A stretch of DNA of 64,000 nucleotides from Octopus sinensis (GCF_006345805.1 NC_042999.1:15314001-15378000); one strand, 5' to 3'. Counted from the stretch's first letter, positions 15,886 through 53,297 are shown. The notes: generated from the sequence alone by a model not told the origin. Translations and numbers: made by a program.

Positions 15886-15981
15886 ATCCAGGCTACATGT
15901 GTTTCATAGCTAACAGAACCCCAGAATTAGTAAATTATCCAGACGAGGGGTTGACCGCAAGGTACTCTTCAGGCCAAGGAT
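15886..15981 (-). ncRNA. Type I hammerhead ribozyme motif with extended stem II, second family
   Basis: Reverse complement: atccttggc-CTGAAGA-gta ccttgcggtcaacccc...ggggttctgttagc tat-GAAA-cacatg-TA-gcctggat. Stem I is atcc/ggat plus ggc/gcc, stem II is 60 nt with aacccc/ggggtt, and the triplet is GUA. Confidence 0.68.
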
Positions 15982-31565: not shown

Positions 31566-31773
31566 ACTTCAATTGAACATGAATCTGGTAATGTGATACG
31601 ACTCCCACTTCGGATATATTCCAGAACTTGGTTATTTGAGAGGCCTTGGTAAGGAAAACTACCAAATGTTACTATTTCATACAAAAGTACACCGAAACTC
31701 CAAATATCTGACAATGCTGTGAAAATTCCATCCCATATACTTTCTGGGGACATCCATCGAACTGGAAGCATCC
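31566..31773 (-). CDS. VKR: Receptor tyrosine kinase (VKR-like), exon with subdomains VIII-X
   Basis: ttttcattgcag|GG ATG CTT CCA...ATT GAA GT|gtaagt, 208 nt. Translates (G)[68 protein letters not shown](V). In frame with the previous exon across a 21.4 kb intron. Confidence 0.95.
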
Positions 31774-35260: not shown

Positions 35261-35474
35261 CCCTCCAGGATCTTCCATATACTCTTTACTCCTTTACTTG
35301 TTTCAGTCATTTGACTGTGGCCATGCTGGAGCACCACCTTTAATCGAGCAAATCAAGCCCAGGACTTATTATTTGTAAGCCTAGTACTTATTCTATTGGT
35401 CTCTTTTACCGAACTGCTAAGTTACGGGGATGTAAGCACACCAGCATCGGTTGTCAACTGATGTTGCAGGGACA

Positions 35475-35509
<35 letters not shown>

Positions 35510-35795
35510 AATAATGAAGGGTGAAATTAATTAATTTGGAATAATTATCAATTACACCAAGTAGTCTTCGGCATGTAAAAGCCTCATTCGAGGAAAATTT
35601 AAGTAATACTAAGCAATAAAGGGTTTAGCAACGAATTGCCTTACCACATACCGAATTTAGAAATAGCAGTCAAAGAGTTATAGCTATTTCTTCTACTAAA
35701 AAGGGGAGATCTCAGTAAAAACAGCAATTGGAAGGCAGACACAGACAGGTAAGAGAGAATGAATTGACGGCAATCTATCATACAATTTTAAGTTA

Positions 35796-35897
35796 TCTAC
35801 GGACGCACGTTTCGAAATCAAGCCCTTAGGAAAGCATAAGAATTACATATTAAATAATTCTACCTTACCAAAAAACTTCTTTTCTCTTCAGCGTAGA
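35796..35897 (-). ncRNA. Type I hammerhead ribozyme motif with extended stem II (inverted copy, sense to the kinase pre-mRNA)
   Basis: Reverse complement reads tctacg-CTGAAGA-gaaaagaag...gggcttgatttc-GAAA-cgtgcg-TC-cgtaga. Stem I is fully Watson-Crick. Confidence 0.75.
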
Positions 35898-36179
35898 ATA
35901 CTATAATCATAAATGATTATATATTGAATTTTGAGATACTAGAAGGCACCAACTCAACTCAGTATCAGAGCGAGCTAGAATCCGCAACTAGTATCACCAA
36001 ATTCAATGTGTGAATGAAAAGATTGTGTCACCAGCCCCTTCCCACCCGCGTGTAGCCAAAACATTCATTCACACATTGAATTTGGTGATACTAGTTGCGG
36101 ATTCTAGCTCGCTCTGATACTGAGTTGGTGCCTTCTAGTATCTCAAAATTCAATATATAATCATTTATGATTATAGTAT

Positions 36180-36281
36180 TCTACGCTGAAGAGAAAAGAA
36201 GTTTTTTGGTAAGGTAGAATTATTTAATATGTAATTCTTATGCTTTCCTAAGGGCTTGATTTCGAAACGTGCGTCTGTAGA
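36180..36281 (+). ncRNA. Type I hammerhead ribozyme motif with extended stem II
   Basis: Layout: tctacg, CTGAAGA (36186-92), gaaa[long hairpin]tttc, GAAA (36264-67), cgtgcg, TC, tgtaga. Stem I is 6 bp, the core is intact, the cleavage triplet is GUC, and stem III is minimal and near-palindromic (ACGTGCGT). Confidence 0.75.
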
Positions 36282-38203
36282 TAACTTAAAATTGTATGAT
36301 AGATTGCCGTCAATTCATTCTCTCTTACCTGTTTGTGTCTGCCTTCCAATTGCTGTTTTTACTGAGATCTCCCTTTTTAGTAGAAGAAATAGCTATAACT
36401 CTTTGACTGCTATTTCTAAATTCGGTATGTGGTAAGGCAATTCGTTGCTAAACCCTTTATTGCTTAGTATATATATATATATATATATATGATGGGCTTC
36501 TTTCAGTTTCTGTCTACCAAATCCACTCACAAGGCATTGGTCGGCCCAAGGCTATAGTAAAAGACACTTGCCCAAGATGCCACACAGTGGGACTGAACCC
36601 AGAACCATGTGGTTCATAAGCAAGTGACTTACCACACAGCCACTTTTACTCCTATGTATAAAACTACATATCGCTCCCATCTTCACTCCAGGGAATAGAG
36701 CTGTAACTCTTTCAGTCCCTCCTATCAAGAATGCTGACGTATTCCATTATATAATAAATGCTTTATTCATAACCATACCATATTTATAGCAGAACATGTG
36801 ATTCTAAGATTTAAAATTTTCAGATATAATTTTACGACTAAAAAGATGGAATTTGCTGTGGAAGTTTGTTTGGTACACTGAGCAGGTCACATAACTATGT
36901 AAAAGATTCTTTAATGGCTCAGCCTAGTTATTTATTGATTTTTGTTTTTCTTTTTATGTTTTCGTTTTTTTTTTTACATTTTATGCAATAGAAGCAATGA
37001 AATTGTCTCAGCTATTATATGTTGTGGATGAAAAGATGTAAAGTATCTTTAGTTTGATCTAAAACAATAAGAATATCTCCAAAGTTGAGGAGTCATGTGT
37101 GGTAACAGTGCGTTTACATTGAACAAACATATAGCAATCAAACAGATGGAAAAGGCTTTGATGGTATTGACGTAATGAGGGTGATGATAAAATTATGTTC
37201 TTGCTAAATACTAAGAACTGCCAATAGATTTGGGACCGAGATAACGAGGACTTCGGAATGGCATCCATGCTAACTGCAGATGAACAAATACAGTTGTCTA
37301 TTAGTTGTAGACATTAATATTAATATCTCACATTAATGCAAAGTCGCCATGTATTTCTTACATGGATATGTGGCTTTGGGCATTGGCACAGTGCCATATA
37401 TTTAAAGAGGATGGGAAATAAAATTATGTGCGAGTCATGCTTTATTCAAAAGTCGAATGAAGCAGAGCTGCAACCAGGAATACAACTGGATCACAGATGA
37501 AGCTCATCAAGAGCTTTCTCCCGCTCTACTTGTCGTAAATAACATTAACTATTAACATTATCTAGAACATCATTCAATATTACTAAACAGTTTAGTAGGT
37601 GGAAGTATATTTAATGCTGATCGTATAGCTTCATGTCAGAAGAATACAGCTGATGCTGTAGTAATCCCAAACAGCTGAAGAAAGTTGATGTATTACACAC
37701 ACACACACACACACATAATACATGGCTTGCAAAAGATAGGATAGAGCTACAATTAATAAATGAACCATAATGCAGGGACGGGGGGTGAAGGTGTCTGGCC
37801 AAGTGGTTAGCATGCTGAACTCACAATCATGTGGTCATGGGTTCGATTCTGGAACTAGGAGATATGCTGTTTCCTTGAGTAAGGCCATTTAACATTACTC
37901 CAGTGAATGAGTACCATTTCAGTGCAGGTGCTTCTTTTCTGATATATATTTTATTGACTATCATATATATATATATATACATACATACACTCTTACTCTT
38001 TTACTTGTTTCAGTAATTTGACTGCGGCCATGCTGGAGCACCGCCTTTAGTCATGCAAATCGACCCCAGGACTTATTCTTTTGTAAGCCTAGTACATATT
38101 CTATCAGTCTCTTTTGCCGAACTGCTAAGTTACGGGAACGTAAACACACCACCATCAGTTGTCAAGCAATGTTGCAGGGACAAACACAGACACACAAACA
38201 TAT

Positions 38204-38234
<31 letters not shown>

Positions 38235-38936
38235 CATATATACGACAGGCTTCTTTCAGTTTCCATTTACCAAATCCACTCACAAGGCTTTGGTTGGCCC
38301 AAGGCTAGAGTAGAAGATACTTGCCCAAGGTGCCATGCAGTGGGACTGAACCTGGAACCATGTGGTTGATAAGCAAGCTACTTACCACACAGCTACTCAT
38401 GCGCCTATATATATATATATATATATAGATATGATGGGCTTCCTTCAGTTTCCATCTACCAAATCCACACACAAGGTTTTGGCTGGCCCAAGTCTACGGT
38501 AGAAGACACTTGCCGAAGGTGCCAAGCATTGAGACTGAACTTGGAACCTTGTGGTTGGGAAGAAGGTTCAAAAATGTTGTTAAGATTAATAAACAAATTA
38601 TTACCAATTAAATTTATTTCAAGCTGTGACTCATAACTATTTTTATTCAACGATGGGTAAGGGCAAACTGTGGCACATAGGATTTTCTGAATGGCATGCC
38701 TTACAAAATATTATCTTGAATTTTTTTTTAGAAGTCTGGCCCACCAGATAATTAGCCATGCTTCATGTTACCTCATCCTCCTCAGCATTTAACATCCGTT
38801 CTCCTTGCTGGCATGGCTTGGATGGTTTCACAGAAGCTAGCAAACCAGCGAGCTGCACCAGGCTCTGATTGTCTGTTTTAGCATGGATTTTAAAGCTGGA
38901 TGCCATTCCTAATGCCAGTAAATTTATAGTCTACTG

Positions 38937-53184: not shown

Positions 53185-53297
53185 CTTTTTTAGAGAATTT
53201 GTAAAAATCTGATTCATATAGTGATCGCGTCATTCCAAAATCACCTATTTTCACTGTTTTATTTGAATGTACCAAACAGTTACGACAAGCTAAGTCT
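53185..53297 (-). CDS. VKR: Receptor tyrosine kinase (VKR-like), exon with catalytic loop, DFG and activation loop
   Basis: tttaaaattccag|A GAC TTA GCT TGT CGT AAC...AAA AAA G|gtgagt, 113 nt. Translates (R)[37 protein letters not shown](G). Confidence 0.95.

Follow-up and report, generated by a model that had tools for sequence, protein, structure and literature searches.

An Inverted Insertion of a Young, Protein-Free and Likely Retrozyme Family with Long-Armed Hammerhead Motifs in a Kinase Intron of Octopus sinensis

Introduction

Non-LTR retrozymes and the hammerheads of Penelope-like elements (PLEs) are already known. The available text of one source mentions short stems for hammerheads (PMC3088659), and what is described as a long helix II comprises 6–8 bp in the accessible parts of the literature (PMC4209133; PMC13725137). 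According to the sections at hand, cleavage of published PLE and retrozyme motifs is often poor (PMC4209133; 10.64898/2026.07.22.740005). The Hydra clade of PLEs is described, in the text available, by a DKT motif, a CxCx5C linker and targeting of (TA)n (Craig et al. 2021, 10.1101/2021.04.23.441226). For an anole PLE, the end signature that we describe below for an octopus family has been traced to two internal reverse-transcription starts (Frangieh et al., PMC11167929, accessible parts).

For cephalopods, an annotation of the giant squid genome counts 235 Rfam hammerheads (PMC6962438), and the word ribozyme is absent from the available text of a 2026 octopus repeat annotation (PMC13282606). 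We found no literature report of a stem II of 45–105 nt in animal retroelements, for which Lunse et al. 2017 and the supplements of the papers could hold long-stem examples, nor did we find one describing retrozymes in octopuses or retrozyme copies with edits.

In this work, we discuss an element in a stretch of 64,000 nt of Octopus sinensis DNA (NC_042999.1:15314001-15378000), hereafter the window, in which all positions are counted from the first letter. An initial annotation had described it as a young palindromic element with two head-to-head hammerheads. The window element is an inverted insertion of a young protein-free family, which we regard as likely to be a non-LTR retrozyme using the enzymes of a Hydra-clade PLE. 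With its multi-helix stem II of 71 nt, it is a structural variant of the known hammerheads.

Structure of the Insertion and Its Family

The inverted arms (35606–36018 and 36064–36470) align over 413 columns with 2 substitutions, one 1-nt and one 5-nt indel, and both ends of the element lie in (TA)n; arm alignment and end inspection thus agree with the near-identical ~410-bp arms embedded in (TA)n that had been annotated. The (TA)n tract splits an older dispersed repeat, the left part of which, with its (TA)n target, is found at 35286–35505 and the right part, together with (TA)n, at 36468–36671 (both without strand assignment); an unbroken paralogue of this host repeat is present at 37993–38424.

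The ~410-bp arm had been taken as the element unit; this does not hold, the unit being a tandem monomer of 593 nt, the positions of which we number from the predicted hammerhead cut. The left copy (35506–36063, minus strand) is 5′-truncated and comprises unit positions 334–593 followed by 1–298, its 3′ end being the fixed site B. The right copy (36064–36470, plus strand), also 5′-truncated, comprises positions 379–593 followed by 1–195 and ends at the fixed site A. The element is asymmetric, with the left copy 100 nt longer. This one-sided “tail” (35506–35605, minus strand) extends from site A to site B and likely reflects two reverse-transcription starts, following the model in the accessible parts of PMC11167929. 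The unpaired 45-nt spacer at the inversion junction (36019–36063, minus strand) also belongs to the left copy as its extra 5′ part. With one fixed 3′ end of each kind, the window insertion is of the A+B type.

A search of the octopus genome with the arm returned 1,584 first-look candidates, 40 of which were scored; the 41 matches listed cover nearly the whole arm at 97–100% identity. A 29-nt motif from stem II recurs without mismatch at 1,151 places in the genome (control 0), so that the family comprises at least 1,151 copies. The unit, with a period of ~593 nt, a GC content of 35% and one type I hammerhead per unit, is dispersed as monomers to multimers, i.e., solo, in tandem or in arrays of up to ~20 units. 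Coding capacity is absent from it: the longest stop-free frame measures 56 codons in a natural dimer, and the unit is devoid of a reverse-transcriptase (RT) or GIY-YIG open reading frame (ORF). Divergence amounts to 2.4% between insertions versus 0.9% between units of one insertion, and all units of an insertion, both arms included, carry one haplotype. The circular monomer is predicted to fold at -159 kcal/mol (z -6.9; antisense -121), with the hammerhead helices in the minimum free energy structure. The copy search, the non-coding unit, the PLE-type ends and the covariation treated below support the earlier description as a non-autonomous, ribozyme-bearing PLE-type retroelement family with an enlarged stem II.

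One array of ~12 kb (L061-L062, G000:C1, 95.52 Mb) is inverted at its centre and comprises about 20 units, which share a single haplotype and show A and B ends. The family was also seen in contigs (runs X16, X18, X20, X5) of four other organism labels (B–E), some of which show two further compensatory changes in stem I. Of 24 runs listed with the family, 14 are guessed to be RNA, none being labelled so, and these consist of contigs throughout. Among the 8 runs aligned, in which contigs only were searched and the RNA nature of which is a guess, no splice or back-splice joints were listed. A conserved GGUAAG inside stem II resembles a splice donor; no joint was seen at it, and its conservation in the old subfamilies is to be read knowing that their search pattern fixed it.

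Hammerhead Motif and Stem II

The hammerhead motif of the right arm (36180–36281, plus strand; predicted cut after 36275) consists of stem I (36180–36185 with 36276–36281), which opens with a G-U pair at the core, CUGAAGA (36186–36192), stem II (36193–36263), and then GAAAC, GUGC and GUC. The same parts are present in the left arm (35796–35897, minus strand), where the motif lies in the sense of the kinase pre-mRNA, with stem II at 35814–35884 and the predicted cut after 35802. This confirms one complete type I core (CUGAAGA, GAAA, three helices) per arm: CUGANGA, GAAA and NUH are arranged around three helices and the motif is open at helix I.

The 71-nt stem II (36193–36263, plus strand) is built of a 4-bp base helix, a small internal loop, a second and a third helix and an AU-rich apex. 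Folding at -18.6 kcal/mol (z -4.4 against 60 shuffles; -6.4 for the antisense strand) bears out its description as an interrupted hairpin; for the 121-nt hammerhead region folded alone, z is -2.0. The proposed palindromic mini stem III is found as well, in the form of the GUGC loop. In the predicted fold of the monomer, stem III has a pairing probability of 0.0 and is thus not predicted to form, and for two such loops a dimer duplex of -8.8 kcal/mol is predicted. Stem I is predicted to pair in the arm alone with a probability of 0.06–0.37, lower for the core-proximal pair. By eye, no canonical loop I–loop II contact motif is recognisable, and loop II lies at least 20 bp from the core.

Comparison with the Rfam hammerhead models, which the initial annotation had proposed as a check, gave no support: between 30000 and 42000, none of the 72 matches up to E 5 belongs to a hammerhead family. 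At the gathering score, no hammerhead match was obtained for seven loci including short-stem hammerheads, and the Rfam models thus also miss ordinary PLE-type motifs. For the window family, self-cleavage after GUC is a prediction from the motif. A further hammerhead-like match in the window (15894–15972, minus strand) has a 60-nt stem II with weak pairing at its base and is probably decayed.

Private A>G Changes in Stem II

The initial annotation had treated the G-U pairs of the second helix as structure at the family level. Of the first 100 matches listed, 98 read AAAAACTT, with Watson–Crick pairing, where the window has aagggctt. The family has AAAAA where the window reads AAGGG, and among 31 G-bearing matches AAGGG is confined to the two window arms. 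The G-U pairs are, hence, due to three adjacent A>G changes (36252–36254, plus strand; mirrored at 35823–35825) that are private to this insertion and likely A-to-I edits.

Cephalopods edit their RNA heavily. On balance, the pattern of changes makes it rather probable that the G-U pairs of the window stem from occasional A-to-I editing of the template RNA, which would have been fixed by reverse transcription. Editing is named as one possible cause of circle heterogeneity in the accessible parts of the work of Cervera and de la Pena (PMC7229834). There is a considerable minority chance that the clustered A>G changes arose without ADAR, by errors of the reverse transcriptase or by selection keeping the helix, in which A-U is turned into G-U. 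Such an origin would fit the fact that G-U preserves the helix and A>C or A>T breaks it. It is also in line with the family as a whole, where an A>G excess is absent (10/78 vs 8/127, p 0.13) and T>C is equally common (A>G vs T>C, p 0.6); family-wide editing is not supported. Against an origin without ADAR stands the clustering of A>G in cis, i.e., five of five changes at L323, five of eight at L327 and three of four in the window, together with its recurrence at sites 416, 517 and 544 on different backgrounds. Likewise, the main background yielded no 570G lacking 571G; this combination is confined to a separate subfamily (33 matches; the listing gives 35, with two transversion types). In favour of editing, unit position 571 carries G in 31 matches (16 insertions) versus a single match for C or T. 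Nine of the 16 insertions with 571G belong to one sub-lineage, and the others are distributed over at least four backgrounds. Among the other changes in the 571G insertions, A>G accounts for 13/28 versus 10/78 at heritable sites (p 8e-4), in a post hoc, hand-counted tally which kept one representative of the sub-lineage and dropped the mosaic L321. Occasional editing of the template RNA therefore remains our preferred reading for this insertion.

Conservation and Spread of the Long Stem II

Older subfamilies, represented by 265 motif matches in pieces ~71–91% identical to the unit, have a stem II of 60 nt. Covariation of stem II, which had been proposed as a test, was found: in an alignment of 26 copies, both partners differ in 3 of the 20 predicted pairs, of which one belongs to stem I and two to the lower part of stem II, and these few independent, inherited events amount to about three, shared by subfamilies. 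In the 21 older copies, picked by a pattern that fixes the 5′ core and part of stem II, 98.8% of 483 cells are paired (slid controls 21–41%), 2 of 23 pairs are compensatory, and none of 500 shuffles reaches the covariation score; their third, apical helix is conserved without compensatory change. The core itself is conserved across genomic copies, as had been expected of a functional motif, with only core position 7 varying freely over subfamilies of ~71–91% identity.

In the young family, stem II measures 69–71, 76 or 83 nt, the differences being due to AT-rich duplications of 7 nt, giving a range of 60–83 nt over the subfamilies. A sister retrozyme of ~545–560 nt has only the A–B region in common with the window family (66–70%), together with the same ends. 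Its stem II measures 24–26 nt, with a base helix and an internal loop similar to those of the long form. This sister retrozyme is abundant (555–560 nt at L296-L300, L278 and L295), and in a 544-nt sister subfamily (L285, L288, L289; at least two arrays) the core reads CCGAUGA in all tandem units seen.

Genome-wide, we searched for the pattern CTGANGA-N-GAAACNNNNGTH, where N is the length class of stem II. For N of 10–40, 45–75 and 76–105, there were 20,611 (control 1,532), 39,110 (control 1,436) and 10,462 (control 1,300) matches, respectively. This corresponds to ~70,000 matches in all three classes (control ~4,300), ~70% of them with a stem II of at least 45 nt, or ~49,600 matches at 45–105 nt (control 2,700) versus ~20,600 short ones. 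The long stem II, which had been taken to mark the window family alone, is instead the commonest form of the motif in this genome, and the long forms are spread over many unalignable families. Since many copies are old and decayed, these pattern matches are not to be equated with active ribozymes. A palindromic loop III is present in 23/30 and 6/12 of position-ordered samples versus 15% expected; 14/30 and 4/12 of the same samples additionally have a basal stem II helix of 3 bp or more. In 200 kb of arbitrarily chosen sequence, three matches were found, all of them long (reversed control 0). It appears that tens of thousands of long-armed hammerhead motifs have escaped standard searches.

At L017:371-952 (plus strand), a different family forms a 491-nt tandem, in the hammerhead of which stem II measures 68 nt, stem I 8 bp and the palindromic stem III 12 nt. 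At L025:2924-3040 (minus strand), L304:2709-3830, L255 and L260, stem II measures 82–98 nt and has GC-rich base helices.

The long stem II looks like a loop II grown outward, and most likely it is a tolerated structured add-on and no new catalytic domain, because the lower helices are kept by compensation while the apex grows by AT-rich duplications. It is rather unlikely that the long stem II is instead a selected domain, e.g., a substitute for loop I–loop II docking or a site bound by the PLE protein, that evolved repeatedly in this lineage. The dominance of long stems in so many unalignable families would speak for such a domain, as would the small internal loop that follows the base helix and looks similar in both sister families, long and short, and the superfamily linked to an intact PLE (L189, see below), in 18 copies of which compensatory changes affect 5 of the 15 pairs of stem II (no shuffle of 500 reaching the score). 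However, the closest sister family is equally successful with 24–26 nt, the families share no sequence motif, and the apical helix lacks compensatory change. Furthermore, the alignment of a third group (13 copies, probably several families mixed) gave no consensus stem II. More tentatively still than the add-on, one may think of an overlooked major class, in which hammerheads with a stem II of 45–105 nt, commonest here, reside on Hydra-type PLEs and their retrozymes, the arm functions in docking or protein binding, and circular RNAs with A-to-I edits made by the host are retro-inserted; taken together, these points are less likely than not.

Insertion Route and Candidate Helper

Merging 100 loci yielded 80 regions, 2 of which were clipped by a locus edge and dropped, leaving 78 complete insertions (43 direct, 35 inverted). 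Their 3′ ends are at site A (unit 188–206) or site B (unit 286–312), ~100 nt apart, and the insertion target is (TA)n. The direct insertions end at A in 36 cases, at B in 6 and elsewhere in 1; the inverted ones comprise 29 of A+B type, 1 of A+A and 5 with one odd end. The first 30 loci are biased towards site A by the query; among loci picked by pattern, without 3′-end bias, 23 of 27 inverted insertions are A+B. The 5′ ends (n=176) are evenly spread over the unit, with no enrichment at the cut site (12/176 in the first 30 nt). The palindrome is, thus, a routine insertion product and not the special design for which it had been taken, because 35 of 78 insertions are inverted and 29 of these 35 have one fixed 3′ end on each side. 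The window element is one inverted insertion, ordinary for its family.

Two fixed internal 3′ ends, a one-sided tail, variable 5′ truncation, and inverted and tandem copies mark the family as a probable PLE-mobilised one. In the proposed route, tandem copies would be transcribed, the hammerheads would cut once per unit, with the palindromic stem III loops pairing to assist them, and the monomers would be ligated to circles. A PLE protein would presumably nick a (TA)n tract on each strand, and reverse transcription, by the same putative enzyme, would start internally at A and at B, which lie 100 nt from each other and are visible as fixed ends. Copying would then pass through the ribozyme for a variable length, as seen in the resulting solo, tandem or inverted insertions. 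A circular monomer is the simplest template, because insertion-private changes recur in all units of an insertion and in both arms.

We consider it improbable that the family moves as an uncut linear multimer, with the hammerhead a slowly decaying relic of PLE terminal repeats and the long stem II neutral. The missing pile-up of 5′ ends at the cut site and the drift of the stem II apex from 60 to 83 nt would be compatible with this. Cutting may indeed be dispensable, because the sister subfamily with the changed core has spread, the anole PLE inserts in vitro without hammerhead cleavage (PMC11167929, available parts), and 8 of 9 Xenopus retrozyme dimers were uncleaved in vitro (10.64898/2026.07.22.740005, available parts). 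Nevertheless, a relic is at odds with a core in which, over subfamilies ~71–91% identical to the young unit, only position 7 varies freely, with helices maintained by compensation across them, and with the insertion-private changes common to all units and both arms. For the route via circular monomers, we infer a Hydra-type PLE as helper of the window family.

A young, intact Hydra-type PLE with an 899-aa ORF and a period of 3.6 kb is present at L189:1410-5104 (also at L190-L193), and its repeats contain a hammerhead with a 55-nt stem II, 600 nt past the stop codon. Its protein has DKT and YRDD motifs and lies close to reverse-transcriptase clusters in a protein atlas (0.93–0.97); its endonuclease end gave 18,623 first-look candidates in the genome search. 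Pfam scans of 12 homologues, the hits being on homologues only, yielded one RVT_1 and two weak GIY-YIG matches, and 30 long homologues show DKT in 20 and CxCx4-6C in 23 cases. For the 899-aa protein itself, Pfam, PDB and a single-sequence fold (pLDDT 34) were uninformative. Hydra-clade features found at L189 are, thus, DKT, a C-terminal GIY-YIG or GIY-YIG-like domain (with weak Pfam hits) and a (TA)n target; the CxCx5C linker was not seen in L189 itself and is present in L305.

The link to RT/GIY-YIG ORFs proposed in the initial annotation stands in part: a long-stem hammerhead is found in the repeats of an intact PLE, but the 593-nt unit shows no convincing nucleotide match to the L189 repeats. 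Searches of loci L121-L203 and L254-L310 with the unit returned retrozyme relatives only, and no PLE-like ORF was among those listed from 30 loci for a motif of the A–B region (8,663 matches). Other Hydra-like endonuclease ends lie upstream of hammerheads at L305:2352-4718 (60-nt stem II) and L309:3243-4043 (76–77-nt). A link to Naiad elements was rejected, as the ORF pieces upstream of long-stem hammerheads end in the endonuclease and an N-terminal GIY-YIG was not found.

Kinase Intron and Masking of the Hammerhead

The annotated position inside a kinase intron is supported by an in-frame GT..AG splice and a PF07714 exon. The upstream exon (53185–53297, minus strand; DLACRN..DFG, HRDL-like/DFG) joins in frame to the downstream exon starting at 31773 (31566–31773, minus strand; PF07714, E 2e-22), so that the host intron of this minus-strand receptor tyrosine kinase spans 31774–53184 (21.4 kb). 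Earlier kinase exons lie beyond the window, with GAGAFG and VAVK in L196 and LLGV in L194.

Within the kinase pre-mRNA, transcription reaches the antisense arm before the hammerhead arm, and forcing the hammerhead fold would cost +148 kcal/mol relative to the arm–arm duplex. For both reasons, the ribozyme is predicted to be buried in the duplex as a side effect of the inverted insertion, and the masking suggested earlier is supported by this model. That selection retained the palindrome as a shield of the kinase pre-mRNA from self-cleavage is very unlikely: arm order and the lead of the duplex would suit it, but the inverted form is routine (35/78), the insertion is very young (arms 98% alike) and there is no sign of selection.

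Comparison with Known Systems

Should the long-armed hammerheads be active, a cephalopod-type genome would hold tens of thousands of ribozymes, and claims that an element lacks a hammerhead would have to be re-examined with descriptors that allow for long stems. That a non-coding retrozyme bears the mark of PLE two-site initiation directly supports the proposal that retrozymes ride on PLE enzymes. Furthermore, both the role of the PLE hammerhead and the retro-insertion of edited RNA become testable in a young family that has a long and a short sister form.

The comparisons below refer to the accessible parts of the cited papers. Like animal non-LTR retrozymes (PMC7229834; 10.64898/2026.07.22.740005), the window family is a non-coding tandem of low GC content (35%) with one type I hammerhead per unit and a highly self-paired monomer, dispersed as monomers to multimers and coexisting with autonomous PLEs. 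In contrast to their canonical 4-bp helix, its stem II measures 60–83 nt. The monomer of 593 nt exceeds the 170–400 nt given by Cervera and de la Pena 2020 (PMC7229834) and lies within the retrozyme range of 51–972 nt of Li et al. 2026 (10.64898/2026.07.22.740005). Also setting it apart from animal non-LTR retrozymes, the PLE two-site tail is documented here on 78 insertions, and circular RNA of the window family is putative.

With the hammerheads of PLE pseudo-LTRs (Cervera and De la Pena 2014, PMC4209133), the window family shares the type I core, the palindromic loop III, the G10.1-C11.1 pair and copies close together on opposite strands. While a helix II “larger than usual” comprises 6–8 bp there, the arm here is multi-helix and 45–105 nt long, and the window family is without the extra unpaired base before helix II.

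Hydra-clade PLEs (10.1101/2021.04.23.441226) resemble the window element in (TA)n insertion, tandem and inverted copies and a one-sided tail; unlike them, it is protein-free and its tail measures ~100 nt versus 30–40 nt. L189 agrees with the clade in DKT, a C-terminal GIY-YIG-like domain and hammerheads in the repeats, and deviates from the published description in the CxCx5C linker, which was not seen in it, and in its size of 3.6 kb.

Finally, the anole Poseidon element PAc (PMC11167929) shares with the window family two internal reverse-transcription starts that give rise to a tail, an AT-rich target and an uncleaved hammerhead in the copies. In contrast to the window family, PAc is autonomous, belongs to another PLE clade, and has a short stem II and start sites within its ORF.
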